NCBI GenBank assembly: GCA_963700155.1 | Contig: OY969472.1 | Span: 598,431-662,430, forward strand | Reading direction: 5' to 3' | Source of the DNA: an uncultured bacterium | GTDB lineage: Bacteria > Patescibacteriota > Dojkabacteria > J137 | Length of the DNA: 64,000 bases | Shown: one piece after another, positions 1-45,205 of the stretch | Numbering within the stretch: position 1 is the first letter of the stretch | How the letters are laid out: each line of letters starts with the position of its first letter | Notes under the pieces: model-generated | What the model was told of the DNA's origin: nothing | Database searches by the model: none | The model's input: the letters and a program-made list of their open reading frames with translations, nothing else | Program-made: the position numbers and the translations under genes

Positions 1-1599
1 TCAAAAGGATAATGGAATCTTGCATAGGGCATAGCCCCCGAATCATACCAAACATCTATTACATCAGGGATTCTTTTGTATTTTTCACCATCTATTTCAA
101 ACTCAATTTCATCGACAAAAGGTTTATGAGGATCATTTAATTCTGCTCCTGATAATTCTTTTAATTCTTTAAATGAGCCGATAACCATTACTTTCCCAGA
201 TTCTGACTTCCAGACAGGGAGAGGAGTTCCCCAATATCTTGATCTTGATATTCCCCAATCTTTTATTTCGGCTAACCAATTTCCAAATCTACCTTCTTTT
301 ACATGAGACGGAACCCAATTAATTTTTTCATTATTAGCTACTAATTTATCTCTTAATTGGCTCATTGATATGTACCAGGATGTAATAGGTTTATAGATCA
401 GTGGAGTATTAGTTCTCCAACACATTGGCATATCATGTTCATATTGTTCTTCTCTAAATAATCTATCTTTTTGTTTTAAATCTTCAATAATTTTAGGGTT
501 TGCATCTCTATAATTTAACCCAGCATAAGGCTGGATCTCGTCAGTAAAGTCTCCTTGATCATCAAGAACATCGAAACTTTTTATTCCAACTTTTTGAAAA
601 ATTTCATTATCCTCAGCTCCGTAAGGCGCCAAATGAACAATCCCTGTTCCTGAATCAGTTGCTACATAATCAGCATCATATATTTTGTGGGCATTTTCTC
701 GACCAATAAAAAAATCAAATGGAGGAACATATTCTTTTCCTATTAATTCTTCAGCCGAAATTTCACCAACAACTGTGAATGGATCTCCTTTAAATACATT
801 ATCCAAAAGATCTTTTGCAACAATATATGTATTTTCTGTATAGATCCTTTCACTTTTACATATTTAATATTTTTATTAATTAGCTAATCCTAGATTTGAG
901 GGAATAGTCCAAGGAGTTGTCGTCCAAGCTAATAATTATAGTTTTAGGATCTTCTTTTAATGGAAATTCAACAGTTATTGCAGGATCTATAAAAGGTTTG
1001 TATCCTCCTAAAGCTACTTCTGCATTAGATAAAGTTGTTCCTGCTCTAGTTGAATAAGGTACAACTTTGAATCCTTCATACAGTAGTCCTTTATTCATAA
1101 AGCTCTTTTAATGACCACCAGATAGATTCTATGTAATCTTTATCCATTGTTGCATATTCTTCTTCATCATTTGTTAATCTCCCCATCATTTCTTCTAGTT
1201 CCACAATTTGTGCTCTTTTATCAGTTACTAATTTTCTACATAGTTCATTGAACTTGGCAACTCCAAATTTTTCTATATCCTTTTTTTCTTTAAATCCTAA
1301 GTTTTTTTCAACTTCATACTCAACAGGTAATCCTTGGCAATCCCAGCCGATACTTCTTGAGTTACTCTAAATCCTTGCATAGTCCAATATCTTGGAATAA
1401 TGTCTTTTAGTGAGAATGTGAGTGCATGGCCTATATGAGGATCTCCATTTGCAGTAATTGGTCCATCATAAAAAGTTTTATTTTTATCATCAGGTCTTTG
1501 GTTAATTGATTTTTCAAGAATATTGCTTTCTTTCCAATATTTTAGTATTTCTTGTTCAAAAGAAAAAAAATCAGGTTTTCCTGAAGGTTTGCTAAACAT
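1..1599 (-). pseudogene. ileS: Isoleucyl-tRNA synthetase (ileS), N-terminal ~530 codons running off the window start; interrupted by at least five single-nucleotide A indels between ~845 and ~1365
   Basis: The minus-strand translation shows the HIGH-region 'DPHIGHAL...PRYWTMQGFRV', then 'RSIGWDCQGLPVEYEVEK', 'SIWWSLKELYE', 'KGLLYEGFKVVPY', 'WTTTPWTIPSNLGLA', and from ~845 down to 1 an uninterrupted 'ERIYTENTYIVAKDLL...DVWYDSGAMPYARFHYPF'. These are class I IleRS motifs. Consecutive pieces lie in different frames, and each junction can be repaired by one A insertion or deletion. Confidence 0.7.
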
Positions 1600-1631: not shown

Positions 1632-2087
1632 ATGCAATTTTACATTCAATGTAAGTTATATGCAATGTTGTATAATCAACCAAATAAATATTATTCCAAT
1701 AGTATGGACAAACATTTTAGAGTTGATGATGGATATAATAATACTATTACAAAAAAGAATGCATTAGTAGCTTTTATAACAATGTCTAGATGGGATTTAT
1801 GGCACTGTGAATATTTGATAAATTTTGCAAAAAATTTAGTTTCAGATTTCGATAAACTTAGCTATTTAGATGTAGGACTTTTTAATGATTTACCTGAAGT
1901 TAGGACGATATTAAATTTAAGATTGGAAGGAACAATAAAAGAAAGAGAATTAGAAGTAATGTCAGGGATAATATATATTGTATTTATGATTAAAAAAAAT
2001 ATTGAGAGAGAATCTATGATACAAAAACTAGAAAAAGTTCTTGAATACAAAGTATCTTTTTTTGATCCTAATTCTTATTTATATTAA
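1632..2087 (+). CDS. hypothetical protein (151 aa)
   Basis: ORF with no recognisable motif; it sits between ileS and the next ORF. Confidence 0.3.
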   Translation: MQFYIQCKLYAMLYNQPNKYYSNSMDKHFRVDDGYNNTITKKNALVAFITMSRWDLWHCEYLINFAKNLVSDFDKLSYLDVGLFNDLPEVRTILNLRLEGTIKERELEVMSGIIYIVFMIKKNIERESMIQKLEKVLEYKVSFFDPNSYLY

Positions 2088-2119
2088 TCATAAATATTCA
2101 AGAATCTTTAAACAAAAGA

Positions 2120-2455
2120 GTGACACTTGATAATTTAATAGTTTCTTATTTTATGTACGATATTCCCGAGAGTGAGAGAGAAGAAGTTCTAGATACATTA
2201 GTAAAAGATTTAGCGATATTAGTCAGACAAAGTGAAATATTCTCGCCTAAAGATCCATATAAACTCTATGGACTTTCTGAAATAATTGATATCCTAAATG
2301 TTGATTTGGGTAGTCAAGTTTCAGTTGAGACACAAATACGAAATAAAATTTTAGAAATGATAGATATAGTAAATAGTAAGGGGTATGGATATAAAACTAA
2401 AGTTGAGAATCTCCTCAAGTTAACAAAGTTTTTTACCCAAGCAAAATATTATTAA
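2120..2455 (+). CDS. hypothetical protein (111 aa)
   Basis: ORF only. Confidence 0.3.
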   Translation: MTLDNLIVSYFMYDIPESEREEVLDTLVKDLAILVRQSEIFSPKDPYKLYGLSEIIDILNVDLGSQVSVETQIRNKILEMIDIVNSKGYGYKTKVENLLKLTKFFTQAKYY

Positions 2456-2498: not shown

Positions 2499-3311
2499 GT
2501 GTATAATTGCAAAATGAATCCAATAACTGAAAAAATTTTAAATTCGAGAAAGTATAAAGATATCTATCCAAAAACAATCGAAAGAATAGTAAATGATTGT
2601 ATTAAAAGATATGGAGAAAAACGTGCAGAGAAAGAAGCGAAAGAGCTTATCCATCAAGTATGGGGAGCCTTCTATCGAAGTAGACCAGATTTCCAGAAAT
2701 TACTTGAAAAATTCTCTGCAGATGTTCCAGAAGATGATTATGATTTTGCAAATTTAAAACAGATAGATGATTTATTAAGAATACATTCTTCTACAGTAGA
2801 AAGAATGAAATTCATAGATGAATTTTATTCTAAAATATTTAAAATTACTGGGAAACCAAAGTCCATACAGGATATTGGTTGCGGATTTACTCCTCTGGGT
2901 ATTAAACATATGGGGATTTCAAAGAAAACTATGTATACCGCCTCTGATATTGATTTGGAGGAAATCCGCTTCTTGGCAAAAATATCTAAAATATTATTTC
3001 CGGACTATAATGTAAAATTTGAGGCTGCTGATGTTTTAGTGGATGATTTTGAATATGCTGATGTAGTATTTTTATTAAAAACTATTCCAATCTTAGAAAG
3101 ACAAGAAAAAAATGCTTCTGAAAATATTTTGGATAAGTTAAAGTATAAATATTTAGTTGTTAGTTTCCCTTTAAAAAGTTTATCTGGAAGAGAAGTGGGA
3201 ATGTCAAAATTTTATTCTGAGAACTTTGATGAGATTTTACAAAAAAAATCATTAGTTTATAAAAAATTAGAATTTACAAATGAACTTGTATATGTCATTA
3301 GTTCTGTATAA
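2499..3311 (+). CDS. FmrO/ArmA/RmtB-family 16S rRNA (guanine1405-N7)-methyltransferase homologue (aminoglycoside-resistance type)
   Basis: At 270 aa it matches the family in length. It is collinear with RmtB as I recall it. 'ILNSRKYKDIYPKTIERIV' aligns with 'ILASKKYRALCPDTVRRIL'. The SAM motif 'IQDIGCGFTPLGI' aligns with 'VLDIACGLNPLAL'. 'VFLLKTIPILERQEKNASENIL' aligns with 'IFKLLPLLEREQAGSAMALL'. 'YLVVSFPLKSLSGREVGMSKFYSENFD' aligns with 'RMAVSFPTRSLGGRGKGMEANYAAWFE'. The C-terminal 'ELVYVISSV' aligns with 'ELIYLIKKNG'. Confidence 0.6.
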   Translation: MYNCKMNPITEKILNSRKYKDIYPKTIERIVNDCIKRYGEKRAEKEAKELIHQVWGAFYRSRPDFQKLLEKFSADVPEDDYDFANLKQIDDLLRIHSSTVERMKFIDEFYSKIFKITGKPKSIQDIGCGFTPLGIKHMGISKKTMYTASDIDLEEIRFLAKISKILFPDYNVKFEAADVLVDDFEYADVVFLLKTIPILERQEKNASENILDKLKYKYLVVSFPLKSLSGREVGMSKFYSENFDEILQKKSLVYKKLEFTNELVYVISSV

Positions 3312-3349: not shown

Positions 3350-3604
3350 ATGGGTAAAGTTGAAGCAAATATGGATAGCTCTATCGATGTACAGAAGGTG
3401 TTAAAGTATATCCCAAGAGTTATTGCAGCATTATTCTTTGGAGGATTGGTTGTTTATCAAAATTATATTATATTTCATCTTTTGCAAACTACATTAGGTT
3501 GGGAAAACATTGGAGATATGCAGATAGTTCTGGCTGCAGCTGTTGCCTCAACTGTAATTGAGACATACTTAATTGCAAGAGAGATTGGAAAGTGGATGAG
3601 ATAG
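3350..3604 (+). CDS. small integral membrane protein (84 aa, two predicted TM helices)
   Basis: Hydrophobic segments 'VIAALFFGGLVVYQNYIIF' and 'IVLAAAVASTVIETYLIA'. Its stop is 1 nt before the fmt ATG. Confidence 0.35.
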   Translation: MGKVEANMDSSIDVQKVLKYIPRVIAALFFGGLVVYQNYIIFHLLQTTLGWENIGDMQIVLAAAVASTVIETYLIAREIGKWMR

Positions 3605-3605
3605 T

Positions 3606-4532
3606 ATGGACAAAATTAAGACGATTATTATTGGGACTTCTGAATTTGCTGTACCGATTTTAGAGGCGGCTTTAGCACATCCAATGCTTGAAGTTGCTGC
3701 AATTGTAACTCAACCTGATCGTCCTGCAGGCCGTGAACAAACGCTAAAGCCGTCTGCTGTAAAACAATTCCTTTTAGACAAAAAAAGTGAAATTACAATA
3801 ATTCAACCCGAAAAAATAAAAGATATTTCAGGCGAACTACTTGATGAATATGAACCTGAATTAATTATAGTAGCTTCTTATGGGCAGATAATTCCGAATA
3901 ATATTTTGGAATATCCAAAATATAAATGTCTAAATTTTCATGGTTCATTACTTCCAAAATTAAGAGGTGCTGTTCCAGTAAATATGGCAATTTTACTTGG
4001 ATTTGAGAAAACAGGAGTAACTTTACAGATTATGGCTGAAAAAATGGATGTTGGAGATATTATCTCAACTAGAGAATATATTTTAAAACCTGATGAAACG
4101 GCTGAATCTTTGATGGCTGAACTTTCAATGCTCTCAGTTGAAATCTTAAATCAAGATTTAGAGAAATGGATATTAGGTCAGATTCAGCCATCTGCTCAAG
4201 ATGAATCAGAAGCTACTTATTGTTATAGAGGTGATATTTCTAAAGATAAAGCAGAGATAAAATTTGAAACTGATATAGATTTAGCAGAGCGAATGATTAG
4301 AGCTTTTTATCCATGGCCGGTTGTCTGGTTTGAGCTTCCGGGAAAGGGAAGAGTAAAAATATTTAAAGCTAAAAAATCTGATATTCAAAGCCAGGCAACC
4401 GGCCTTCAATTAACAAAATCAGATAAAAAATTACTACTGAATCTTCAAAATGGTACTCTTGAACTTTTAGAACTTCAACTTGAAGGAAAGAAGAGGGATA
4501 GTGTAATTAATTATTACTTTCTTGTTAATTAA
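3606..4532 (+). CDS. fmt: methionyl-tRNA formyltransferase
   Basis: N-terminal formyltransferase fold with 'IIGTSEFAVPILEAAL', 'IVTQPDRPAGR' and 'NFHGSLLPKLRGAVPVNMAIL' (cf. E. coli SLLPRWRGAAPIQ), followed by the C-terminal Fmt domain. Length is 308 aa. Confidence 0.9.
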   Translation: MDKIKTIIIGTSEFAVPILEAALAHPMLEVAAIVTQPDRPAGREQTLKPSAVKQFLLDKKSEITIIQPEKIKDISGELLDEYEPELIIVASYGQIIPNNILEYPKYKCLNFHGSLLPKLRGAVPVNMAILLGFEKTGVTLQIMAEKMDVGDIISTREYILKPDETAESLMAELSMLSVEILNQDLEKWILGQIQPSAQDESEATYCYRGDISKDKAEIKFETDIDLAERMIRAFYPWPVVWFELPGKGRVKIFKAKKSDIQSQATGLQLTKSDKKLLLNLQNGTLELLELQLEGKKRDSVINYYFLVN

Positions 4533-11918: not shown

Positions 11919-11952
11919 CTTATAATCTCTTCGCAATATTAATAATTTTTGT

Positions 11953-12024
11953 TCCGGCTTAGCTCAGCGGTAGAGCGCTCGCCTGTTAAGCGATTGGTCG
12001 CTGGTTCGAATCCAGCAGCCGGAG
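11953..12024 (+). tRNA. tRNA-Asn (anticodon GUU)
   Basis: Manually folded cloverleaf. The acceptor TCCGGCT pairs with AGCCGGA. The D-arm is GCTC/GAGC. The anticodon stem is CTCGC/GCGAT with loop CTGTTAA. The T-arm is GCTGG-TTCGAAT-CCAGC. The discriminator is G, and CCA is not encoded. Confidence 0.85.
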
Positions 12025-12046
12025 ATTTAAATTCTTCAATTTAGAA

Positions 12047-15213: not shown

Positions 15214-18200
15214 TTACAAAAAGCTAAAGATGTCTTGTAACCCTTTCAAAACAATATCAAGTGCACTCTCAGATTTCTGAGGTGCAATAGTTACAATATT
15301 ATTAGTTTGCGATTCATTCTTACTACTATCATCAGATACAGCTCTTAAGTGATATACACCGGATGGTTTAAGATTAGAAACAATTACAACATGTTTAAGA
15401 CCTAAAGTTCTATCAATCTGAGTACTTTGACTGTAATCACCAGAAGAACCTTCACCAAATTCTACTTGACTTGTAGCAAGTTCATCAGTGGTCCAAGAAA
15501 CAATAACTTGAGCAGTAGAGTCTTGAGAATCAGGATTAACAGCTTCAACTTTAATGTTAGAGATAGCAGGAGGTCTAGTATCAGTCGCAGTAGTAAATGT
15601 ATGAACATCAGAAGTAGCTTGATTACCAATAGAATCTGTACCTTTTACTACAAGTGAGTACTTAGTATCAGTCGAAAGATTTTCAATAGTTAACTTATGA
15701 TCGGTTTTAGGTTCAATATCGATGACATTTTTAATAAGATCTGGATTATCAGCAGGATAGAATGAAACAATTGATGATATCTCAGTATTAGAAGACCAAG
15801 AGACATCAACAGTAGGTTGGGCAACATTCTTAACTTCTTGAATTTGTATATTACTTACAGTTGGTCTTGGTAATGTAGTTAGGTCTAAAATGGTACCTTG
15901 ATACTCGAATCCTTCAACATCTGTTGGATTAATTTTAAAGTAATATTTAGTTCCGTCATCTAAATTACTTAAAAGAGCAGTGTAAGAACTTTCAATAAAT
16001 GCAGTGTCAATAGTTTTCAATCCTCCAAAATCAGTTGATTTTCCATAATATACTTTTACAGATTTAGCATTAGTAACTGTAAAATTGATTAATGCTGAAT
16101 CAATTCCAACATTAGATGCATTTGCATTCTTAACTGTTGGTGCAGGATCTGTGGAGAAAGTTTTCTCTTCACTGATACCTGTATTCCCATCTTCATCAGT
16201 CCATTTAGCTCTGTAGTAGTAAGTTGTTCCAGCCGACAGATTATCAAGAGTAACAGTATGAGCAGTAACTTGAGCAGAAACAGCACTTTCAGCTTCAAGA
16301 TAATCATTAGATGAAAGTCCTATTTGAATTTTAGAGTCAGATCTTCTGTCTGTTACCCATGAGATAACTGCTTTTCTTGTAGTAGTAGCATTAACAGTAG
16401 GACCGGAGATTAAATCAGCAGGACTAGTATATTTACCTGTAGGATATTTAGTAACAGTACTAGAAACAGCAGAGCAATTGTTTGCAGAGTCACATGCTTT
16501 TATGCAGTAATAGTAATCTTGTTGTGATAGTCCTGTATCAATATATGATGTTCCTAATACTGTACTGATTTTTGAGAAGTCTCCAAAACTGACACTACAA
16601 GAAGCACTGGTAGTAGTAGATCTATATACATCGTAATTAGAAACTCCTGCACCAACATTAGAAGGAGTGGTCCAAGTTAAAGCTAATTTCCAATCAGAAG
16701 TATCTTTATTAGAGATATCAGCAACATCAGGGTTCAAAGGAATACCAGGTGCTTGTCCGGAATAGGTAAATGTAATAGATGTATATGTACTGTAATTGAT
16801 ATTCCCAGCCTCATCTTTAGCAACTACATAGAAAGTATTAGTGTCAGGTTGATTAGCGAATGCGTCTGCTGATAAACTTGTTACACCTGCGCTAGTATAT
16901 GTACAAGTGTTTACGCTAGGTAAGGTATTAATTGTATAGCAGTATGTTAGGTTGCTAACACTACCAGTAAAAGTTCCTGGAGGATCCCAGTCAAAAGCAT
17001 AAGAATTAGTAGTATTATCACTTGGTGTAACACTTAAGTTTTGTGGTTCACTAGGTGCATTAGTGTTAATTTTTAGTACTCCTGAGATACTTGATGTAGA
17101 AATATTCCCAGCTAAGTCTAATGTTCTAAAGTAAATGATGTTGTTACCATCAGAAAGGTTAGGATAATCATAAGTAGGATCAGTAGTATAGGTGCCGTCA
17201 TTAACAAGTCGGTCAGTTAAATCTTGATTACCATTATGTAAATCTCCATACCATGTACCTCCACTTCCAATTCTGTATTGTAAACCTGCTAAACCGGCAC
17301 CAACATCAGTAGCTTCATTACCTCCAGTTGTTGGCCAAGTGATAGTGGCATCTTTAGTAGAGATAAAGTTAGATGGCATAGAGATAAAGTCAGGGTTCTC
17401 TGGAGGTGTATTATCAAATTTGAATGAAATTAAATCCTGGTAAAGATTAGAAGCACCACTCCAAATATTACCGGTAACATCAACAGCTTTGATAGAGAAG
17501 TAGTATTGTTTACCTGTTGTTAGAGTCAATCCAGAGATACTACTTAAGTCAACGTGATCCCCTGTAGCAATGTAATCACAATAACTTTCACTTACACCAT
17601 CATCAAGACCATGGAGGATACCTCCACTAGTAGCAGGGTTAACACTGCTAGAGTTACCAGGAGTAGCTTCGTCAAGTGAAATACAATATCCTAACAACCC
17701 ACTTCCACCAACATTGTCGTTACCTTCGGTCCAGTTAATTTGAGGTTTAGACTTGACCCAGTCACCGTCATTAACTCCTGAGATATTAATACTTGTGGCA
17801 TTTTGTGTTGGTAAGGTTGTATCATAAGTTAAGTCTAAAGATACATCTGAAAGAACAGGAGTATTCTGTCCACCAGAACTTAGGAATGATTTAAATGCAA
17901 AATATTTACTAGAAGGACTAAAGCTAGAGATATTAGTGTTAATATCAGAAGCAATATTGGAATTAGCACTTGAACTAGCGTTACTCCAAGCAGCACCATC
18001 CCAGTATTTCCAAGTATTATTTGAATTACAATTAGAAACAGTATCACCACATATTTGATAATATATCTCACTTCCTGCAGGTTTAGTAGAAGTAGTAGTA
18101 CAGTTACTACTACCATCTAAAGTACCTTCACAGAAGTGATCAATCGATTGTGGCCTAGATGTTAGATCTAAAGAGTTAGTAGAACTAACTGATGGTTTAT

Positions 18201-18440
18201 CAACAGGATAATTTTGATAAGTAAATGTATTACTTGATATTTTAGGTAAGTAACTAGAATTATCAGTTTCAAGAATAGTTTTGTATTGAAAATATTGATT
18301 ATTAGAAACGTTACTTAAAGCAAAAGTAGGTAAGTCAGTAGAAGTATTATTAGCATCAGAATAATATGTATTGGAAGTCCCATCAGGACCGATAAATGAC
18401 TCTCCAGAGCAAGCATTATCATCACATGATCTAACCTGGT
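15214..18440. repeat. ~3.2-kb near-identical direct repeat, copy 1 (3' two-thirds of paralogue A)
   Basis: Nucleotide stretches from 15214 to ~18440 are almost identical to 20217 to ~23445. The encoded proteins run from 'KYQVRSCDDNACSGESFIGPDG...' to the C-terminus with only scattered substitutions. Confidence 0.8.
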
Positions 18441-20196
18441 ATTTTACATTTTGGAGACCTCTTTTATAAATAGTATTAATTTCAGTTGGAGAAAGACTTT
18501 TATTGAAGATAGAGAATTCGTCCATAAATCCTTTAAATTTAGATGATGGACTGCCTGAGTATAGTGCTCCAATTTCCATTTTATTTTGTGTTATTGATCC
18601 AAAGGTGGTAGAAACTGTTGAAGCTGCAACACCATTTACATATGTAGTTAAATTATTCCCATTACGAACTCCTACTACATAATACCATTTTCCTGCTTCA
18701 ATAATATTGGAGTAAGTTGATCCTACTATATGACTAGCATCATCTCTAACTAAAAACGTTATGTCATTATTACCTGTAGCGAATTGAAATAATACGGCTG
18801 AACCGGCTGTAGTAGTTCGATAAGCACCGATCGTGTATGAAACAGACACTGAGTCTACATTTATCCAAGCTGATACAGAATAATTTGTTCCCAGAGTTGT
18901 TCCAGGGTAGGGATCATTAAGTTCAATATAGCTATTGCCATCAAAGTATTCTGAGTAACTACCTAATTTATAGACTAAATTAGAAAATTGGGATGAGCCT
19001 ACAATAGTACCATTTTTGCTATTGCCACTTGAATCATTTGCATTCCCGTCAAAGTGCCAAAGCCCCTGATTGTTCGACATATCAACATTATCTGTACTAT
19101 ATTGAGTTTCAATTCCTTTATTATCTGGCAAATTCTTCCCGTAAGGAGCATTTGGTAACCAATTAATATTTTGCCAAGTTGTCCCATCAGAAACAGATGT
19201 ATCAAAAACTTTTGAAGTATATTCCCCATACAGACCTGCACCTTTTTCATAATTTGTTTTAATTTCACTTGCAGACAAGGCAGTAGAGTATATCGTTGTA
19301 TCGTCTAGAGCTCCGACAAAATATCCATGCCCCCCAGAAGGATCAATAGAAATACTTTTCCAATTAAAATATCGTAAGTTACCAGATGAAGATCCATTCT
19401 TAATATACTCACCATTTAGATATAGTGATATTGTATTATTATTATTGACAACGGTAACAAAATTCCATCCAGAAAGAGTAGTGCTATAAACTAAATTATA
19501 AGGCATTAACCCAGATTTTTGCTCACATAATGTAATCCCATTAGTCCCAACATTGATTCCTAATCCGGTTCCACCTGTAACATAGTGGGGATAGAATATA
19601 GTTCTATTAGATGTTAAATTTGAAAAGCATTCAACCCCACTTCCACTTTGAGATCCAAGATGAGTAGTTGATTCAGGTTTAACCCATGTACTTATTGTAA
19701 ATGTTGTACTACTAATTTCCCCATCAGGAACATCTACATAACTAGTGTTGTCAAAATGTCCAGCTGTTCCTATCTGTCCTGTTGTAAATATTGCTCCATA
19801 AGATGTACCATTATAATTACCTAATTCATCATTCCAGTTATTCTCAAATCTCCACTGTGCAACAACCCCCGGATCGTTTGAAGGGGTAGAAGCTGGTGTA
19901 TTACTTAAAGTTAAATTACCAGAAGAATATTGAGTATTATTGTATGTACCTAAATCATATTTAGCTTGAGAATCATCAGTAATATCAGTTTGAACTTGTT
20001 TTAAAGAAGCTTCACCTCCAGTTACTTGAATCTTATTGGAATCAGATAAAGTATAGTCTGAAGGTGTAGAAAAATCCCAGGTGAAGCTGGTTGATGCAAA
20101 TAATTTAGTACCTATAAAAATTATAGGTATGCTAACCAGAACAATAATAATAAAGACTTCTTTTTTTTCAATTTTCTTAATTCTAAATTTTTTCAT
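15214..20196 (-). CDS. giant surface protein, paralogue A (1660 aa): signal anchor, LamG/ConA-like lectin modules, Cys-rich linkers, multiple Fn3/PKD-like domains
   Basis: N-terminus 'MKKFRIKKIEKKEVFIIIVLVSIPIIF' with one TM. The conserved module 'FASTSFTWDFSTPSDYTLSDSNKIQVTGGEASLKQVQT' follows. Two LamG-like modules are present (e.g. 'NYSVSAWINVDSV...YVVGVRNGNNLTTYVNG'). Repeated ~95-aa beta modules such as 'TSPADLISGPTVNATTTRKAVISWVTDRRSDSKIQIGL...TTYYYRAKWTDEDGNTG' follow. The C-terminus is 'ALDIVLKGLQDIFSFL'. Confidence 0.7.
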   Translation of the reverse strand: MKKFRIKKIEKKEVFIIIVLVSIPIIFIGTKLFASTSFTWDFSTPSDYTLSDSNKIQVTGGEASLKQVQTDITDDSQAKYDLGTYNNTQYSSGNLTLSNTPASTPSNDPGVVAQWRFENNWNDELGNYNGTSYGAIFTTGQIGTAGHFDNTSYVDVPDGEISSTTFTISTWVKPESTTHLGSQSGSGVECFSNLTSNRTIFYPHYVTGGTGLGINVGTNGITLCEQKSGLMPYNLVYSTTLSGWNFVTVVNNNNTISLYLNGEYIKNGSSSGNLRYFNWKSISIDPSGGHGYFVGALDDTTIYSTALSASEIKTNYEKGAGLYGEYTSKVFDTSVSDGTTWQNINWLPNAPYGKNLPDNKGIETQYSTDNVDMSNNQGLWHFDGNANDSSGNSKNGTIVGSSQFSNLVYKLGSYSEYFDGNSYIELNDPYPGTTLGTNYSVSAWINVDSVSVSYTIGAYRTTTAGSAVLFQFATGNNDITFLVRDDASHIVGSTYSNIIEAGKWYYVVGVRNGNNLTTYVNGVAASTVSTTFGSITQNKMEIGALYSGSPSSKFKGFMDEFSIFNKSLSPTEINTIYKRGLQNVKYQVRSCDDNACSGESFIGPDGTSNTYYSDANNTSTDLPTFALSNVSNNQYFQYKTILETDNSSYLPKISSNTFTYQNYPVDKPSVSSTNSLDLTSRPQSIDHFCEGTLDGSSNCTTTSTKPAGSEIYYQICGDTVSNCNSNNTWKYWDGAAWSNASSSANSNIASDINTNISSFSPSSKYFAFKSFLSSGGQNTPVLSDVSLDLTYDTTLPTQNATSINISGVNDGDWVKSKPQINWTEGNDNVGGSGLLGYCISLDEATPGNSSSVNPATSGGILHGLDDGVSESYCDYIATGDHVDLSSISGLTLTTGKQYYFSIKAVDVTGNIWSGASNLYQDLISFKFDNTPPENPDFISMPSNFISTKDATITWPTTGGNEATDVGAGLAGLQYRIGSGGTWYGDLHNGNQDLTDRLVNDGTYTTDPTYDYPNLSDGNNIIYFRTLDLAGNISTSSISGVLKINTNAPSEPQNLSVTPSDNTTNSYAFDWDPPGTFTGSVSNLTYCYTINTLPSVNTCTYTSAGVTSLSADAFANQPDTNTFYVVAKDEAGNINYSTYTSITFTYSGQAPGIPLNPDVADISNKDTSDWKLALTWTTPSNVGAGVSNYDVYRSTTTSASCSVSFGDFSKISTVLGTSYIDTGLSQQDYYYCIKACDSANNCSAVSSTVTKYPTGKYTSPADLISGPTVNATTTRKAVISWVTDRRSDSKIQIGLSSNDYLEAESAVSAQVTAHTVTLDNLSAGTTYYYRAKWTDEDGNTGISEEKTFSTDPAPTVKNANASNVGIDSALINFTVTNAKSVKVYYGKSTDFGGLKTIDTAFIESSYTALLSNLDDGTKYYFKINPTDVEGFEYQGTILDLTTLPRPTVSNIQIQEVKNVAQPTVDVSWSSNTEISSIVSFYPADNPDLIKNVIDIEPKTDHKLTIENLSTDTKYSLVVKGTDSIGNQATSDVHTFTTATDTRPPAISNIKVEAVNPDSQDSTAQVIVSWTTDELATSQVEFGEGSSGDYSQSTQIDRTLGLKHVVIVSNLKPSGVYHLRAVSDDSSKNESQTNNIVTIAPQKSESALDIVLKGLQDIFSFL

Positions 20197-20216
20197 TAAT
20201 TTCTACCCATACTTGA

Positions 20217-23200
20217 TTACAAAAAGCTAAAGATATCTTGTAAACCTTTCAATACAATATCGAGTGCACTCTCAGATTTCTGAGGAGCGATAGTTACAAT
20301 ATTATTAGTTTGCGATTCATTTTTACTACTATCATCAGATACAGCTCTTAAGTGATAAACACCAGATGGTTTAAGATTAGAAACAATAACAACATGTTTA
20401 AGACCTAAAGTTCTATCAACTTGAGTACTTTGACTGTAATCACCAGAAGAACCTTCACCAAATTCAACTTGACTTGTAGCAAGTTCATCAGTAGTCCAAG
20501 AAACAATAACTTGAGCAGTAGAATCTTGAGAATCAGGATTAACAGCTTCAACTTTAATGTTAGAGATAGCAGGAGGTCTAGTATCAGTAGCAGTAGTAAA
20601 TGTATGAACATCAGAAGTAGCTTGATTACCAATAGAATCTGTCCCTTTAACTACTAAGGAATATTTAGTATCTGCTAAGAGACTAGTAACTTCAAGTTTA
20701 TGCTCGGTTTTAGGTTCAATATCGATAACATTTTTAACAAGATCAGGCTGATCAACAGGATAGAATGAAACAATTGATGATATCTCAGTATTAGAAGACC
20801 AAGAGACATCAACAGTAGGTTGAGCTACATTCTTAACTTCTTGAATTTGTATATTACTTACAGTAGGTCTTGGTAATGTAGTTAAGTCTAAAATAGTCCC
20901 TTGATATTCGAATCCTTCAACATCTGTTGGATTAATTTTAAAGTAATATTTAGTGCCGTCATCTAAGTTAGTCAATAATGTAGTATATGAGCTTTCGATA
21001 AATGCAGTGTCAATTGTCTTTAATCCTCCAAAATCTGTTGATTTCCCATAATATACTTTTACAGATTTAGCATTAGTAACTGTAAAATTGATTAATGCTG
21101 AATCAATTCCAACATTAGATGCATTTGCATTCTTAACTGTTGGTGCAGGATCAGTTGAGAAAGTTTTCTCTTCACTAATACCTGTATTCCCATCTTCATC
21201 AGTCCATTTAGCTCTGTAGTAGTAAGTTGTTCCAGCAGATAAATTATCAAGAGTAACAGTATGAGCAGTAACTTGAGCAGAAACAGCACTTTCAGCTTCA
21301 AGATAATCATTAGATGCAAGTCCTATTTGAATTTTAGAGTCAGATCTTCTGTCTGTTACCCAAGAGATAACTGCTTTTCTTGTGGTAGTAGCATTAACAG
21401 TAGGACCGGAGATTAAATCAGCAGGACTGGTATATTTACCTGTAGGATATTTAGTAACAGTACTAGAAACAGCTGAGCAATTGTTAGCAGAGTCACATGC
21501 TTTGACACAATAGTAATAGTCTTGTTGGATAAGTCCAGTATCAATATATGAGGTACCTAATACTGTACTGATCTTGGAGAAGTCTCCAAAACTGGCACTA
21601 CAAGAAGCACTAGAAGTAGTAGATCTGTAAACATCATAACTAGAAACTCCAGCACCAACATTACTTGGAGTAGTCCAAGTTAAAGCTAATTTCCAATCAG
21701 AAGTATCTTTATTCGAAATATCAGCAACATCAGGATTCAATGGAATACCTGGTGCTTCTCCAGAATAGGTAAAAGTAATAGATGTATAGGTACTGTAATT
21801 AATATTTCCGGCTTCATCTTTAGCGACTACATAGAAAGTATTAGTATCAGGTTGATTAGCAAATGCATCTGCTGAAAGTGAGGTTACTCCTGCAGATAGT
21901 ATACGTGCAAGTAGTGCTACTAGGTAGAGTATTAATTGTATAACAGTATGTTAAGTTCCTAACACTACCGGTAAAAGTTCCAGGAGGATCCCAGTCAAAA
22001 GCATAAGAATTAGTAGTATTATCACTTGGTGTAACACTTAAGTTTTGTGGTTCACTAGGTGCATTAGTATTAATCTTTAAAACTCCACTAATACTTGATG
22101 TAGAAATATTCCCAGCTAAGTCTAATGTTCTAAAGTAAATGATGTTGTTACCATCAGAAAGGTTAGGATAATCATAAGTAGGATCAGTAGTATAGGTGCC
22201 GTCATTAACAAGTCGGTCAGTTAAATCTTGATTACCATTATGTAAATCTCCATACCATGTACCTCCACTGATCCAATTTTGTACTGCAATCCAGCTAAAC
22301 CAGCTCCAACATCAGTAGCTTCATTACCTCCGGTTGTTGGCCAAGTGATAGTAGCATCTTTAGTAGAGATAAAGTTAGATGGCATTGAGATAAAGTCAGG
22401 GTTCTCTGGAGGTGTATTATCAAATTTGAATGAAATTAAATCCTGGTAAAGATTAGAAGCACCACTCCAAATATTACCGGTAACATCAACAGCTTTGATA
22501 GAGAAGTAGTATTGTTTACCTGTTGTTAGAGTCAAACCAGAGATACTACTTAAGTCAACGTGATCACCAGTAGCAATGTAGTCACAATAACTTTCAGTAA
22601 CACCATCATCTAAACCATGGAGAATTCCACCACTAGTAGCAGGGTTAACACTGTTAGAGTTACCAGGAGTAGATTCATCAAGTGAAATACAATAACCTAA
22701 CAAACCACTTCCTCCAACATTATCATTACCTTCAGTCCAATTAATTTGAGGTTTAGACTTAATCCAATCACCATCATTAACTCCAGAGATATTAATGCTA
22801 GTAGCATTCTGTGTTGGTAAAGTTGTGTCGTATGTTAAGTCTAAAGATACATCTGTCAGAACAGGAGTATTCTGACCACTAGAACTTAAGAATGATTTAA
22901 ATGCAAAATATTTACTAGAAGGACTAAAGCTAGAGATATTAGTGTTAATATCAGAAGCAATATTAGAATTAGCACTTGAACTAGCATTACTCCAAGCAGC
23001 ACCATCCCAATACTTCCAGGTATTATTACTATCACAATTAGAGACAGTATCACCACAAATTTGATAATATATCTCACTTCCAGCAGGTTTAGTAGAAGTC
23101 GTAGTACAGTTACTACTACCATCTAAAGTACCTTCACAGAAGTGATCAATAGATTGTGGTCTTGATGTTAAATCTAAAGAGTTAGTAGAACTAACTGATG

Positions 23201-23445
23201 GTTTATCAACAGGATAATTTTGATAAGTAAAAGTATTACTTGAAATTTTAGGTAAGTAACTAGAATTATCAGTTTCAAGAATAGTTTTGTATTGAAAATA
23301 TTGATTATTAGAAACGTTACTTAAGGCGAAAGTTGGTAAATCAGTAGATGTATTATTAGCATCAGAGTAGTAAGTATTAGAGGTTCCATCAGGTCCGATG
23401 AAGGATTCACCTGAACAAGCATTGTCATCACAAGAACGTACCTGA
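20217..23445. repeat. ~3.2-kb near-identical direct repeat, copy 2 (3' two-thirds of paralogue B)
   Basis: See copy 1. Identity extends through the conserved C-terminus 'ALDIVLKGLQDIFSFL'. Confidence 0.8.
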
Positions 23446-25157
23446 TATTTTACATCATTTATTCCACGTTTGTATAAGGAGCCCACTTCAGAATTAGTTA
23501 AGACATGGTTAAAAATTGCTAATTCATCCATTCCACCAGTCCAGTACTGTGAATTACCTCCTCCTAAAGACATAGTTTGTATTGCCGGAGCAGTCAGTGC
23601 GGTAGTGTTAGTTCCTAGCTTGGTACCATTTTCATAGATGTTATAAACATCATTATTAAAATCCCAATCGATAGCAACATGAATCCAGGTATTTGCGGCA
23701 AATGCAATAGGGCCAGTTATTGCTCTATAGTTCAAATTAATATAAGAATAAAATCCTGAAGCAACACTATAAGATAATTGTATACCAGAAGTTGTTGTTC
23801 CCCACTGAAAAATAGGGTTATATGTTGTTGGTGGAGAGCTTGAGTTAAAACTTGGTTTCAACCATACACTTAATGTTCCTGTATTAACATTAAATCCTGT
23901 ATTTCCTAAAGTTATATAATCACCACTCCCATCAAAATAAGCACCATTACTACCAAATTTTGCAGTCGATGATGGTGTTGAATTCCCGGATGGACTTGCT
24001 GTATTATTTTGTCCACTAGAATCATTCCAATTTCCATTAAAATGCCAAAGTCCAATATTTCCACTCATATCTACATTATCTTCAGAATATTGTGTTTCAG
24101 CAGCTGCATTATTTGGAAGTTCTTTCCCATAGGGAGAATTTGGTACCCAATTAACATTTTGCCAAGTAACCCCATCTGTTATCGAAGTATTGAAAACTTT
24201 TGAAGAATACTCACCATAATGTCCAACATTTTTAAGGTAATTTTCCTTAATTTGTGTATCTGTTAATACAGTATTATATACAATTACTTCGTCTGCTGAT
24301 CCTGCTGTCCCATGTGCACCTGAAAGACTTCCTATTGCAAAAGGTGCGTTATTTGTTACTCCATTACTTATTACATCAGTATCTTCGAGGTTACCATCAA
24401 AATATAATTTCTGTGTATTTGTTGCCGCATTAAATGTACATATAACATAATGCCAATTCCCGTCAGTGATTGTAGATGTTGATGTTGAATATGCATCTGG
24501 GGCATAACAACTAACCTTATTTGCTGTAGGATAATTTGTTGTAATGAAAGAACCATTTGGACTACCAGCTAAGTGCTTTGAAATAGGGATACCTTGAGTT
24601 GTTATCGTGGTTTTTATCCAGCCACCATATGATCTATCATAATCTCCAAACTCAATTTGTGAATATTCCGGGATTGTAACGTAGTTTGTTCCAGAGAAGG
24701 AAAGTGCATTTCCTACTTTACCTGTTGTCCATGTAGGTGAACCAACAAGTGTCCCGTTATGCCCCAATCCGCTAGAATCACTTGCAGTGGTTCCTGACCC
24801 ATCGTCTAGTTTCCAAAACCCTACTAAGCCACTATCAGGCGCAGTTATATGCTGAGATGTATTTCCTAATGTTAAATTACCAGAAGAATAAAGTGTGTTT
24901 GAATATGTACCTAAATCAAATTCAGATTGAGAGTTATCAGTGATATTAGTTTGAACTTGTTTTAAAGAAGCTTCACCTCCAGTAACTTGAATCTTATTAC
25001 TGTCCGATAAAGTGTAATCAGATGGAGTAGAGAAATCCCAAGTGAAGCTAGTGGATGCAAAAAGTTTAGCAGTAATAAAAATTATTGGAATACTTATTAA
25101 AATTACTATGATTAATATTTCTTTTTTTTGAATTTTTCTAGATTTAAATCTTTTCAT
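20217..25157 (-). pseudogene. giant surface protein, paralogue B; reading frame broken by two single-nucleotide insertions (near 22275 and 21905), splitting it into 22221..25157, a middle piece, and 20217..21740
   Basis: Piece 22221..25157 (978 aa) has the same N-terminal module as A but different LamG cassettes. Piece 20217..21740 (507 aa) is ~97% identical to the C-terminus of A. In between, B has 'ggatcagtggagg' where A has 'ggaagtggagg', and 'gcagatagtatac' where A has 'gcgctagtatat'. Each is a 1-nt insertion that shifts the frame, and a TAA follows in the shifted frame. Confidence 0.6.
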
Positions 25158-25169
25158 TATATATTTTAA

Positions 25170-28100
25170 TTACAAAAAGCTGAAAATATCTTGCAAACCT
25201 CTTAAGACAATATCTAATGCATTCTCGGATCTCTGAGGAGTAATAGTAACAATATTATTGCTTAAGGTTTCGTTTTTGCTACCATCTTCTGAAACTGCTT
25301 CTAAGTGATATACACTTGATGGTTTCAGGTTTGAGATAATGACTACATGCTTTAAGCTCAAACTTCTATCAATTTGAGTCCCTTGAGCGAAGGAACCTCC
25401 GGTTCCTTCGCCATAAAGAACTTGACTTGTTGCTAGCTCATCTGTAGTCCAAGACACTACAATTTGAGCAGTAGAATCTTGAGAATCAGGATTCACAGCT
25501 TCAATTTTTATATTAGAAATTTCTGGTGGTCTTGTATCTGTTGCTGTAGTAAAAGTATGAACTTCTGAAGTCGCTTCATTGCCGATAGCATCTGTACCTT
25601 TAACAACAAGTGAGTATTTAGTGTCGGCATTTAAAGTTGCAACCTCAAGCTTGTGATCAGTTTTCAAATCAAGATCAATAACATTTTTTACAAGGTCAGG
25701 ATTATCAGCTGGATAGAATGAAACAATAGATGATATATCTGTATTTGATGACCAGGTTACATCAATTGTAGGTTGAGCAACATTCTTAACTTCTTGAATT
25801 TGTATATTACTTACAGTTGGTCTAGGAAGAGTAGTGAAATCCAGAACAGTTCCTTGATATTCTGTACCTTCTGTGTCGGTTGGATTAATTTTGAAATAAT
25901 ATTTCACACCATCAGTTAACTCTGTTAATACAGCAGTATAAGAACTTTCAATAAATGCAGTATCTAGTTCCTGTACTGCTCCAAATCCTGTAGTTTTACC
26001 ATAATATATTTTTACTAAGTTAGCATTATTACTTGTAAATTTAATTAAAGCTGAATCAATTCCAACGTTTGTAACTTTAACATTTGTAATAACAGGAGGT
26101 GGATCGGTAGTGAATGATTTTTCTCCACTTGTGCCAGTATTTCCATCTTCATCAGTCCACTTGACTATATAGTAATATGTAGTACCAGCCTTAAGATTAT
26201 TGAGTGTTACTGTATGTGCAGTGACCTGAGCGGAAATACCGACTTCTTCTTCAAAGTAATCACCAGAGGATAAACCATATTGAATTTTAGAGTCGGATCT
26301 TCTATCTGTTACCCACGAGATAACTCCCTTTGTAGTAGTTTTTGCATTTAATGAAGGGCCTGAGATCAGATCGGCAGGACTAGTATATTTCCCTGTAGGA
26401 TATTTAGTAACTGTACTGGATACTGCAGAACAGTTGTTAGCAGAGTCACATGCCTTCACACAATAGTAATAGTCCTGTTGGCTAAGTCCTGAATCAACAT
26501 AAGATGTTCCTAATACTGTACTAACTTTATTAAAGTCACCAAAATCAGAACTACAAGAAGCACTAGCAGTTGTAGATCTATATACATCATAATTAGAAAC
26601 TCCAGCTCCAACATTACTTGGGGTAGACCAAGTTACAGCTAATTTCCATTCTGAAGTATCCTTATTGGAGATATCTGCAACATCGGGATTTAAAGGAATC
26701 CCTGGAGCTTCACCTGAATAAGTAAAGGTAATTGATATATTGGTACTATAATTAATATTCCCAGCTTCGTCTTTAGCAACAACATAGAAAGTATTGGTGT
26801 CAGGCTGGTTAGCAAATGCATCGGCTGATAAACTTGTTACACCCGCACTAGTATATGTACAAGTAGTTGAGCTTGGCAAGGTGTTAACAGTATAACAATA
26901 TGTTATCGCTGAAACACTTCCTGTGTAAGTTGCCGGAGGATCCCAATCAAATGCGTATGAGTTGGCGGTGTTATCAGAAGGTGTTACACTTAAGTTTTGT
27001 GGTTCACTAGGAGCAGTTGTATTGACTTTTAATAAACCATTTACCGTTGAACTGGAAACATTTCCTGCAAGGTCCAATGTTCTGAAATATATAATATTGT
27101 TTCCATCAGATAGGTTAGGGTAATCATAAGTGGGGTCAGTAGTATATGTACCATCATTAACAAGAAGATCCATTAAATCTTCACTCCCAGTATGTAAATC
27201 TCCATACCATGTACCTCCAGAACCAATCTTATATTGTAATCCATCTAAACCAGCACCAACATCGTTAGCAGCATTACTATCACCAACAGGCCAAGTAATA
27301 GTTGCGTCTTTAGTAGAGATAAAGTTAGACGGCATAGAGATAAATGTAGGATTAGTAGGAGGGGTATTGTCATATCTAAATGATATTAAATCTTGATAAT
27401 CTCCTGATGATCCACTCCAAATATTACCGACGACATCAACAGCTTTAATAGAGAAGTAGTATTGTTTACCTGTTGTTAAAGTAAGTCCTGGAATACTACT
27501 AAGGTCAACATGATCTCCTGTAGCAATAAAGTCACAATAAGTGTCTGTTACTCCATCATCAAGACCATGAAGAATGCCAGCACTAGTAGCAGGGTTAATA
27601 CTACTGGAGTTATCAGGTTCAGCTTCATCTAAGGCAATGCAATATCCAAGGATTCCACTTCCATTAACATTATCATCACCTTCAGTCCAGTTGATTGTTG
27701 GTTTAGATTTGACCCAGTCACCATCATTTACATCTGAAATATTTATACTGGTGGCATTCTGTATAGGTGCAGTTGTATCATAAGTTACATCAAGTGACAC
27801 ATCAGAGAGTACTGGTGTATTTTGACCACCGGAGCTTAAGAAAGATTTAAATGAAAAGAACTTACTAGAAGGACGAAAGATAGAAATATTAGTATTAATT
27901 GTACTTGCAGTATTAGAGTTAGAACTTGAGCTTGCATTGCTCCAAGCAGCACCATCCCAATACTTCCAAGTATTATTAGAATTACAATTAGAAACAGTAT
28001 CGCTACATACTTGATAATATAGTTCGGTATTTGTAGGCTTAGTAGAAGTAGTAGTACAGTTACTACTTCCATCTAAAGTACCTTCACAGAAATGATCGAT

Positions 28101-29747: not shown

Positions 29748-30386
29748 ATGTCAAAATTTTTAACTTCAAAACAAAGAATAGTTTTAGATGCTCTTTCATC
29801 TTATCTTGAAGAAAATGGCGAGGCGCCAACCTTGGCTGAACTTCAAGAAATCCTTGGAATAAAAACTAAGAGAGGCGTTGCAAAACACCTAGAAGCTTTA
29901 GAAAGAAAAGGCTTTATTTATCGAAGTGGGAAATCTAGAGGAATTATGTTAGAAAATAGCCTTAATTCGGAAATGTATGATGTCCCAATTTTAGGGTATG
30001 CAAATGCAGGTCAGCCTTTAGTTTTTGCCGAAGAAGATATAGTTGGATCAATTAAAGTTGACAAAGATATTATTAAAAACAAAAAAAATATTTTTGCTCT
30101 TGTTGTAAAAGGTGATTCCATGAATATGAGAACTATTAATAAAGTCCCAATTGTAGATAAGAATTTTATCTTAGTTCAAAAAGAGAGCTCTTATGATAAT
30201 GGAGATGTTGTACTTGCAGTAATAGATAATGCAGCAACAGTAAAAACATTTAAAAGAAGTGATAATTCAGTAATACTTTATCCTGAATCAAATAATCCTG
30301 TTCATACTCCAATTTATTTAAGAGATGATGTTCATGGATTTATTAATGGGAAAGTAATTGCTGTTTTAGAAAATCCATCAAATTAA
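29748..30386 (+). CDS. lexA: LexA-like SOS repressor (S24 peptidase family)
   Basis: N-terminal winged HTH 'PTLAELQEILGIKTKRGVAKHLEALERKGFIYR', a linker, and the C-terminal S24 domain with 'VVKGDSMNM' (catalytic Ser) and a downstream Lys in 'ATVKTFKR'. Confidence 0.85.
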   Translation: MSKFLTSKQRIVLDALSSYLEENGEAPTLAELQEILGIKTKRGVAKHLEALERKGFIYRSGKSRGIMLENSLNSEMYDVPILGYANAGQPLVFAEEDIVGSIKVDKDIIKNKKNIFALVVKGDSMNMRTINKVPIVDKNFILVQKESSYDNGDVVLAVIDNAATVKTFKRSDNSVILYPESNNPVHTPIYLRDDVHGFINGKVIAVLENPSN

Positions 30387-34200: not shown

Positions 34201-34655
34201 GGGGATGTTTATTCGACAGTGAATTGCGGGTTTTAAAGCAAGTCAGAAGTTTATTAATTTCTTCTGTAAATCTCAAATTAATCGTTCCGTAAGGAATGTT
34301 TTGACAATAAACGTCAATAAAATTTCTAATGCATTTAACAGTGCTGTAAATGCTGTAGCTAGAGCTTTTGCTCCCAACTACAACTTATTTGTAGCCTAAG
34401 TTATTTGCAGTAGCTCGAATACAAAAGTAGAGCTACCGTTTGATTTTTCTTCTCTCGATGAGAAACTTCAGGCGAAACAAAGTCGGGATACAAGAAAAGT
34501 TTTTTAATTTATGAAACTTTTCCCAAGTTTAAAATAAATTCGGCATAAGTTTGTTTTTCTAGTTTTTAGAATTTATGCTGTAAAGAAAATTAGATAAACT
34601 TGTAAAACTTTAAGATTTTATATTTGCTGGACAGGGGTTTCCCTCATCTCCACCA
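34201..34655 (+). ncRNA. ssrA: tmRNA (ssrA)
   Basis: The 5' end GGGGATGTTTATTCGACAGTGAATTGCGGG parallels E. coli GGGGCUGAUUCUGGAUUCGACGGGAUUUGCG. The 5' GGGGATG pairs with 3' CATCTCC, including the G3:U70 wobble (Ala identity), and is followed by an encoded ACCA. An internal reading frame GCT..AAC TAC AAC TTA TTT GTA GCC TAA gives the tag '...(A)PNYNLFVA' (cf. ANDENYALAA). The T-arm looks unusually compact. Confidence 0.75.

Positions 34656-43570: not shown

Positions 43571-45205
<1,635 letters not shown>

Follow-up and report, generated by a model that had tools for sequence, protein, structure and literature searches.

Does a homolog of the ArmA/Rmt aminoglycoside-resistance methyltransferases belong natively to the chromosome of an uncultured bacterium, and what would it do there? 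The question is raised by a gene between ileS and fmt in a 64-kb stretch of DNA (positions 598,431 to 662,430 of contig OY969472.1; hereafter, the window). The evidence gathered here makes it likely that the product of this gene (hereafter, rmt) is an active S-adenosylmethionine (SAM)-dependent 16S rRNA (guanine1405-N7) methyltransferase, forming m7G1405, and that rmt is a resident chromosomal gene of a lineage of Candidatus Dojkabacteria, within the Candidate Phyla Radiation (CPR; Patescibacteria). We infer catalytic activity, the target nucleotide, cotranscription with fmt and a resistance phenotype from homology and gene context.

The open reading frame (ORF) at 2499-3311 on the plus strand encodes 270 amino acids (aa) if read from the GTG at 2499, and it contains both motifs quoted in the original prediction, DIGCGFTPLG and LLKTIPILERQEKNA...VVSFPLKSLSGREVGMSKFYSENFD. 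The start is probably the ATG at 2514 (265 aa) rather than this GTG, because the database gene call (P0001) and the homologs begin there and because GTG 2499 lies inside a promoter-like TGTATAAT box. The gene and the parts of its product that bear on its function are the following:

2514-3311, plus strand: rmt, encoding a 265-aa FmrO/Rmt-family 16S rRNA (guanine1405-N7) methyltransferase, as assigned from the ORF and from Pfam, NCBIfam, PDB sequence and fold matches
2514-2849, plus strand: N-terminal helical domain (N1/N2 subdomains), residues ~1-112 of 265, all-helical in the structural model and the predicted 30S-docking surface
2850-3308, plus strand: C-terminal class I SAM-methyltransferase domain, Rossmann-like, with alternating strands and helices in the model and a template-modeling (TM) score of 0.87 to Sgm (3lcv)
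2871-2900, plus strand: SAM-binding motif I DIGCGFTPLG, residues 120-129 of 265, aligning with DAGCALNPFS in RmtC and DFGCGFNPLA in ArmA
3078-3080, plus strand: Lys189 (Lys194 in 270-aa numbering), which maps to RmtC Lys204 and is invariant in the clade
3174-3203, plus strand: KSLSGREVGM loop, equivalent to RmtC K236 plus Loop237-246, with the K, S, R and M corresponding to RmtC K236, S239, R241 and M245 all kept

That the protein is an FmrO/Rmt homolog, as originally proposed, is borne out by profile, sequence and fold comparisons alike. The hidden Markov model search against Pfam FmrO (PF07091) gave a significant full-length match (E=1.3e-45, 156.2 bits against a gathering score of 27; residues 16-266 aligned to profile positions 2-255 of 255), and the NCBIfam equivalog NF000466, 'Rmt family 16S rRNA (guanine(1405)-N(7))-methyltransferase', was passed marginally, with 250.5 bits against a cut-off of 250. 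The NCBIfam models for named alleles ('exception' models) were missed by far, including those of RmtC (138.9 against 550), RmtD (113.6 against 500) and RmtB (81.1 against 525), with similar results for the others. A phmmer search of PDB sequences retrieved m7G1405 methyltransferases exclusively, all reported as full length (Sgm, 4e-41; RmtC, 1e-40; RmtF, 2e-29; ArmA C-terminal domain, 1e-28; RmtB, 2e-20), and no other methyltransferase family provided a better match. A standard annotation pipeline would name the gene correctly.

In line with these results, the AlphaFold model, built on 23 clade members, reaches a predicted local distance difference test (pLDDT) of 89.3 and a predicted TM score of 0.88, and shows the two-domain architecture of the FmrO and Arm/Rmt family, i.e., helical N1/N2 subdomains followed by a class I SAM-methyltransferase domain. 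Foldseek comparison against the PDB placed Sgm, RmtC, RmtF, RmtB or ArmA at all of the best 16 positions, with TM scores (TMq) of 0.78-0.87 for full-length structures (Sgm, 0.87; RmtC, 0.78-0.84) and 0.63 for a 196-residue ArmA entry, the best fold match from outside the Rmt enzymes having a TM score of at most 0.52. Confidence in the model drops below a pLDDT of 50 at residues 225-228 alone, inside the KSLSGREVGM loop; the equivalent loop of RmtB, RmtC and Sgm lacks order in the free enzymes and acquires it on ribosome binding (10.1101/712810).

Conservation of function was examined at 22 positions of RmtC whose roles derive from mutagenesis and from the cryo-electron microscopy (cryo-EM) structure of the 30S-RmtC complex (10.1101/712810; PMC10054953). 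Seventeen are identical in the window protein and two are conservatively replaced, and these 19 of 22 include every position critical by mutagenesis. In 270-aa numbering, the equivalences from RmtC to the window protein are as follows:

30S docking: K20 to K18, Y21 to Y19, R39 to R37, K47 to K45 and R50 to K48 (Lys also in ArmA and Sgm)
Helix-45/44 distortion: H54 to H52, R211 to R201, K236 to K226, S239 to S229, R241 to R231 and M245 to M235
Base positioning: Y60 to F58 (Phe also in Sgm and RmtF) and K204 to K194
SAM binding: S107 to S98, R111 to R102, D160 to D150, D188 to D178 and Q212 to Q202, all five identical

In the 265-aa numbering, K13, Y14, R32, K40, K43 and H47 of the N-terminal domain correspond to RmtC K20, Y21, R39, K47, R50 and H54. 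At the RmtC T207 position the window protein carries a Pro, as do ArmA, RmtB, RmtF and Sgm, and the sole uniquely differing position is that of RmtC N248, here a Phe; the N248A substitution in RmtC leaves the minimum inhibitory concentration (MIC) unaffected (PMC10054953). The key positions are invariant or nearly so across the 23 clade members, which share 42-64% identity with the window protein, and D120, C123 and P127 of motif I are invariant in all of them. Retention of the key residues at this level of divergence indicates purifying selection on the function.

By homology to RmtC, Sgm and RmtB, the helical N-terminal domain would dock on the surface formed by h24, h27, h44 and h45 of the assembled 30S subunit, after which the His47 equivalent and the KSLSGREVGM loop would distort helix 44 and flip out G1405. 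In RmtC, this distortion and flipping are brought about by loop 237-246 (10.1101/712810; PMC10054953), and Lys204 contacts N7 of the flipped base (PMC10054953). Phe53 and Lys189 of the window protein would then position the flipped base, and the methyl group of SAM would be moved to N7. The resulting m7G1405 in the decoding center would be expected to block the 4,6-disubstituted 2-deoxystreptamine aminoglycosides (kanamycin, gentamicin, tobramycin and amikacin), as in every tested system. Since the functional residues are conserved, it is plausible that the gene confers high-level aminoglycoside resistance.

Alternatively, the identity of just 26-37% to characterized enzymes and the borderline equivalog score, together with a negative MIC result for another CPR homolog (see below), could point to an FmrO-fold enzyme that has drifted to another nucleotide or substrate, or that is catalytically dead. 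Such drift or loss of activity is very unlikely, since the residues for 30S docking and for G1405 handling are kept under purifying selection in the clade and the predicted fold superposes over its whole length. Additionally, Sgm and RmtB are reportedly as divergent from each other, and both are said to make m7G1405.

If the product is an active m7G1405 methyltransferase, the next question is whether its gene is native to the host. The protein is encoded on a single contig of 1,140,724 bp, a closed 1.14-Mb genome, and the host is identified as Candidatus Dojkabacteria (formerly WS6) by its GroEL (43577-45205), whose best named matches, at 70-80% identity, are nearly all from Dojkabacteria. The rmt locus comprises the following elements besides rmt itself:

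1-1599, minus strand: 5' half of ileS, divergent from rmt and disrupted by three TAA codons in frame (within 864-878) and by shifts of the reading frame near 1355, 1100 and 927
1632-2455, plus strand: two lineage-specific ORFans of 151 aa (orf151, 1632-2087) and 111 aa (orf111, 2120-2455) that fill the ileS-rmt spacer
2500-2507, plus strand: TGTATAAT, an extended -10-like box found by eye that stops 6 nt short of ATG 2514, where no Shine-Dalgarno sequence is present; it may be the promoter of a leaderless rmt(-orf84-fmt) transcript
3350-3604, plus strand: orf84, encoding a small predicted membrane protein between rmt and fmt, ending 1 nt before the fmt start and without homolog in relatives
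3606-4532, plus strand: fmt, encoding methionyl-tRNA formyltransferase (234.9 bits to TIGR00460, whose cut-off is 201.5) and conserved as the gene downstream of rmt

The placement of rmt between ileS and fmt thus stands as a translation-related neighborhood, but ileS is disrupted, and two ORFans and an 84-aa ORF intervene.

The closest homologs of the window protein (P0002-P0005; 57-64% identity) form a clade with it at 100% bootstrap by neighbor joining (NJ). In those of their contigs long enough to show the flanks, the order is ileS(-), rmt(+), fmt(+), a small ORF, an AI-2E transporter gene(-), a gene for a Big_5/Peptidase_C39_2 protein(-) and an acyltransferase gene(-). The core of this order, ileS(-), rmt(+), fmt(+) and AI-2E(-), is kept in L082-L087 and L092 (five related genomes), with Fmt identity down to 52-54%. 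In L092 (GCA_041750555.1, a more distant member of the Dojkabacteria), two ORFans separate rmt from fmt (ileS, rmt, two ORFans, fmt, AI-2E); its Rmt shares 40% identity with that of the window, its Fmt 54% and the N-terminal half of its IleS 73%. The same assembly, GCA_041750555.1, is also the probable source of P0071, a GroEL with 83% identity to that of the window. We found no description of a Dojkabacteria clade with the ileS-rmt-fmt arrangement in the literature examined.

Composition and mobility scans agree with this positional conservation. The GC content of the window is 31.8%, and that of third codon positions (GC3) is 0.19 for rmt, compared with 0.18 for fmt, 0.17 for the AI-2E transporter gene, 0.20 for the acyltransferase gene and 0.14 for groEL. 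Pfam, NCBIfam and PHROG scans revealed no transposase, integrase or phage family among the neighbors within ~10 kb, no insertion sequence (IS), integron or plasmid genes were found near rmt, and a repeat search for IS or transposon ends around it returned just short, low-identity pairs, as expected in AT-rich DNA. Neither a link to a plasmid, transposon, IS common region element or integron nor foreign composition, the marks of an acquired gene, was observed. Likewise, the gene shows no sign of producer self-resistance within an actinomycete aminoglycoside biosynthetic cluster, no aminoglycoside biosynthetic genes being found nearby, where the neighbors are ileS, fmt, the AI-2E transporter gene and genes for surface proteins. 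Native composition, the lack of mobile-element signatures and the same position in five related genomes together argue that rmt is intrinsic, and the proposal of an intrinsic chromosomal gene free of mobile elements therefore holds.

Several features of the locus might nevertheless raise the suspicion that rmt is a mobile aminoglycoside-resistance gene of recent acquisition, inserted by chance between ileS and fmt. The ileS-rmt spacer is variable, spanning 914 nt in the window versus 109-133 nt in L087 and L082, and contains low-GC ORFans (orf151, at 0.24, has the lowest GC of the region); the adjoining ileS is disrupted; the Rmt, IleS N-terminal and Fmt identity matrices are not fully congruent; and a 14-nt direct repeat is present at 1699-1712 and 3601-3614. 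Against this, the gene occupies the same position in the five related genomes, its GC3 matches that of its neighbors, IS, integrase, integron and plasmid genes and terminal repeats were not found, and the nearest plasmid-borne gene, armA, is just 37% identical. Recent mobile acquisition is thus largely refuted, and we regard it as extremely improbable.

Fmt and AI-2E group the window with L087 and L085, the Rmt of L082 is closer to that of the window than expected and the Rmt of L092 is further, so that the matrices are roughly congruent only. As judged from these comparisons, the position of rmt is old in the lineage, but alleles have probably been exchanged, given that the Rmt, IleS and Fmt matrices do not agree fully. 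Elsewhere in the phylum, Dojkabacteria L009, L011, L015 and L026, as well as other CPR relatives, carry rmt copies in different but ordinary chromosomal contexts, beside prfA/ftsEX, tsaD or a nitroreductase gene, and the occurrence of copies in unrelated contexts indicates a patchy distribution within the phylum. A scan of metagenome contigs for Fmt recovered just 15 distant loci (Fmt identity of at most 49%), none with rmt nearby.

The 14-nt direct repeat is an exact ATAGTATGGACAAA, whose second copy spans the fmt start codon (ATGGACAAA, encoding MDK) and whose first copy lies within orf151, where it likewise specifies MDK; the repeat may have arisen by chance in AT-rich DNA or mark a small duplication. 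The ORFans orf151, orf111, orf84, orf179 and orf86 have no PHROG, Pfam or NCBIfam match and no similarity to the spacer ORFs of relatives, and L085 carries a different, 127-aa ORFan in its ileS-rmt spacer.

The constant proximity of rmt and fmt bears on how the gene might be expressed. In L082-L084 the last 4 nt of rmt are also the first of fmt, and in L085 this overlap extends to 8 nt, which argues for an operon; no terminator-like site was found between the two genes in the window. The layout of the candidate promoter recurs in two relatives, L082 (3015-3032; TGCTAAAAT, 6 nt, ATG) and L087 (7986-8003; GGTAAAAT, 6 nt, ATG), and suggests a leaderless rmt mRNA; a generic sigma-70 promoter scan returned counts equal to those of shuffled controls. 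rmt would thus probably be transcribed together with fmt, as a leaderless transcript starting from the -10 box 6 nt before the ATG, and the modification would be made constitutively within the translation apparatus, yielding intrinsically protected ribosomes.

How exceptional is such a gene? According to the original prediction, the family hardly occurs outside aminoglycoside producers and the mobile resistance genes of pathogens; this proved incorrect. Two peptide patterns, scanned against the species-representative genomes of GTDB, identified at least 581 confirmed homolog loci, and the best 80 of these lie mostly in Chloroflexota (Anaerolineae, Caldilineae, Ktedonobacteria and Limnocylindria), and also in Planctomycetota, Armatimonadota, Poribacteria, Bacteroidota, Firmicutes and several CPR phyla. 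Correspondingly, a profile search of 1.84 billion representatives at 50% identity retrieved 1,954 clusters at E<=1e-3, of which 782 reach E<=1e-30. The family is rare in absolute terms and far from universal, in agreement with the statement that it is not a universal housekeeping methyltransferase, yet vastly more diverse than producers and pathogens. Previous work had placed uncharacterized Chloroflexi homologs in the RmtC family tree (10.1101/712810), surveys of CPR resistomes catalog 16S rRNA methyltransferase-like genes (PMC8651080), and CPR genes annotated as '16S rRNA (guanine(1405)-N(7))-methyltransferase' are cataloged in a preprint (10.64898/2026.07.13.738296). The window gene is therefore an ordinary added member of an environmentally widespread family, with no rarity about it, and adds a documented case of m7G1405 methyltransferases as resident chromosomal genes in many uncultivated lineages.

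Some further members of the family were seen along the way. FmrO-family proteins are annotated in archaeal bins of the DPANN group as well (P0040-P0042 and P0046, a Candidatus Nanoarchaeia metagenome-assembled genome, MAG), and in P0283 (628 aa) and P0299 (907 aa) a C-terminal FmrO domain is fused to something else. P0016 (AIA13108.1, 'FmrO [uncultured bacterium]') is 43% identical to the window protein and may derive from a functional selection.

Several points weigh against an active, resident m7G1405 methyltransferase that protects its host. The NF000466 score exceeds the cut-off by just 0.5 bit; the 16S rRNA gene lies outside the 64-kb window, so that G1405 of the host is not visible there; the inference of a promoter and a leaderless transcript draws on three sequences, L085 and L092 having no clear box; and the divergence of Rmt equals or exceeds that of its neighbors, as in L092 (see above). 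Additionally, one CPR gene of the G1405 type caused no MIC change in E. coli BL21, a test made with a different, more distant protein whose expression and methylation were unverified (10.64898/2026.07.13.738296); this negative result weakens the case for resistance without doing away with it. Finally, fermentative CPR cells have been argued not to import aminoglycosides (10.64898/2026.07.13.738296), and since CPR bacteria are thought to be fermentative and uptake needs a respiration-driven membrane potential, drug protection may not be the selected trait.

The same argument favors a different role for the modification, namely that of a housekeeping modification, made constitutively in the decoding center and coregulated with fmt, that tunes decoding or initiation or replaces lost Rsm enzymes in a reduced genome, with any drug insensitivity as a by-product. 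In line with this proposal, rmt is kept beside or overlapping fmt in a translation neighborhood across diverged relatives, the family is found in hundreds of non-producer environmental species and in ordinary chromosomal contexts at all loci inspected, and Arm and Rmt enzymes measurably alter translational fidelity and stress tolerance in E. coli. A housekeeping role is possible but doubtful, given that the distribution is patchy even within Dojkabacteria, where other contexts occur (L009, L011, L015 and L026), that ~2,000 clusters among 1.84 billion are unlike a core rRNA-modification enzyme, and that Rmt diverges faster than its neighbors. Moreover, we know of no organism in which m7G1405 is documented as a housekeeping mark.

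A resident m7G1405 methyltransferase in this lineage bears on the role of the modification in organisms that probably never meet or import aminoglycosides, although the locus alone does not decide between selection for drug protection and selection for ribosome tuning. It also bears on the origin of the clinical genes. A tblastn search of 72,556 plasmids returned 1,594 records, all of them armA, rmtC, rmtF or rmtB, with identities to the window protein of 37% for armA (99% coverage), 32% for rmtC, 29% for rmtF and 26% for rmtB. The collinearity with RmtB that was first noted holds in that RmtB is matched over its full length, but RmtB is among the more distant relatives, behind ArmA and RmtC. 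Conversely, the best environmental matches of ArmA include members of the window clade, at 38-41%. armA is a low-GC gene of unknown source, and the window clade, although among its nearest environmental relatives, is at ~40% identity not the donor.

The phylogeny proposed for acquired and producer enzymes, a bootstrapped NJ tree of 126 sequences, recovered the window clade at 100% but left the deep nodes without support. ArmA falls inside a CPR-dominated group with 2-8% support, Sgm groups with Chloroflexota and Planctomycetota, and RmtB and RmtF group with Firmicutes MAGs. The placement of ArmA, RmtC, RmtB, RmtF and Sgm in this tree supports no claim on origins. The suggestion of a possibly ancestral copy is likewise unsupported, because no homolog found here is close enough to be a donor, ArmA being the closest at 37% with a placement support below 10%. 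The literature offered nothing usable on an environmental origin of armA or on functional-metagenomic FmrO clones. In a more speculative scenario, m7G1405 would be a housekeeping mark made from a leaderless, fmt-coupled transcript and kept for ribosome function, and the clinical family would descend from rRNA-modification enzymes of uncultivated phyla, the low-GC armA coming from a CPR-dominated pool. Ribosome function is preferred to drug defense in this scenario because CPR cells may not import aminoglycosides; taken as a whole, we consider it unlikely.

Two Firmicutes MAGs, L066 (Candidatus Faecivicinus avistercoris) and L071 (Eubacteriales), encode the closest environmental relatives of RmtB (45%) and RmtF (51%) in the data set, which group with these acquired enzymes by NJ and may point to the pool from which rmtB and rmtF were drawn.

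Compared with individual enzymes, the window protein combines features of both acquired and producer types. Of the acquired enzymes, ArmA, borne on plasmids and Tn1548 in Enterobacterales and Acinetobacter, comes closest (37% identity across 99% of the length, with the same domain order) and shares with the window protein the K/Y docking pair, the His, the SAM-binding Ser/Arg/Asp, the catalytic Lys and the loop Ser/Met. At the positions of R39, R211 and R241, which are Arg in both RmtC and the window protein, ArmA has K, and it has N at K47 and D188; the window gene, unlike armA, is chromosomal, of native composition and without a mobile element. RmtC, an acquired enzyme solved by cryo-EM on the 30S subunit (PDB 8GHU), is 32% identical over the full length, and its loop, disordered in the free enzyme, is paralleled by the low-confidence loop of the model; the window protein differs from it in a shorter N2 subdomain insert, in Phe for Y60, Pro for T207 and Phe for N248, and in not being mobile. 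The actinomycete self-resistance enzymes Sgm, GrmA, KgmB and FmrO are likewise intrinsic and chromosomal, and Sgm is the best solved-structure match and has Phe at the Y60 position, but the window host is no actinomycete, has no aminoglycoside biosynthetic genes near rmt, and Sgm lies outside the window clade by NJ. The uncharacterized FmrO homologs of Chloroflexota and CPR belong to the same broad environmental radiation as the window protein.

The neighboring ileS deserves separate mention, as it is the sole visibly broken gene in the window. It is collinear with residues 1-530 of the intact L087 IleS at 73-92% identity, in four different frames, and its in-frame TAA codons lie at 864-866 and 873-878. 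From this structure it looks like a recent pseudogene, and the disruption of an essential gene implies either that the genome holds another ileS copy or that the assembly is faulty at this point. An alternative genetic code was rejected, since the stops are TAA and the other long genes of the window are intact under code 11; homopolymer sequencing error was also set aside, as the frameshift junctions lie outside long runs, but misassembly may be responsible. The independent Logan contig L001, from the same organism, ends right at the ileS start. Among relatives, two types of IleS N-terminal half occur at this locus, ~40% identical between types and 72-82% within them (L085:4321-7569 and L082:2-2896 versus L087:4919-7891 and L092:6883-9906), and L085 and L087 share 71% identity in their C-terminal halves. 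The types are distributed in a way that is incongruent with Fmt and AI-2E similarity, which suggests that ileS is mosaic or recombinant among relatives.

Further along the window, the minus strand at 15214-29591 encodes four very large predicted surface proteins (1660, 507, 978 and 1473 aa) with Laminin_G_3, fn3 and purple-acid-phosphatase-N domains, a typical CPR cell-surface repertoire. A tRNA-Asn(GTT) gene (11952-12025), a transfer-messenger RNA gene (34201-34655; Rfam, 53 bits) and a lexA homolog (29748-30386) are housekeeping genes, consistent with a core chromosomal region.

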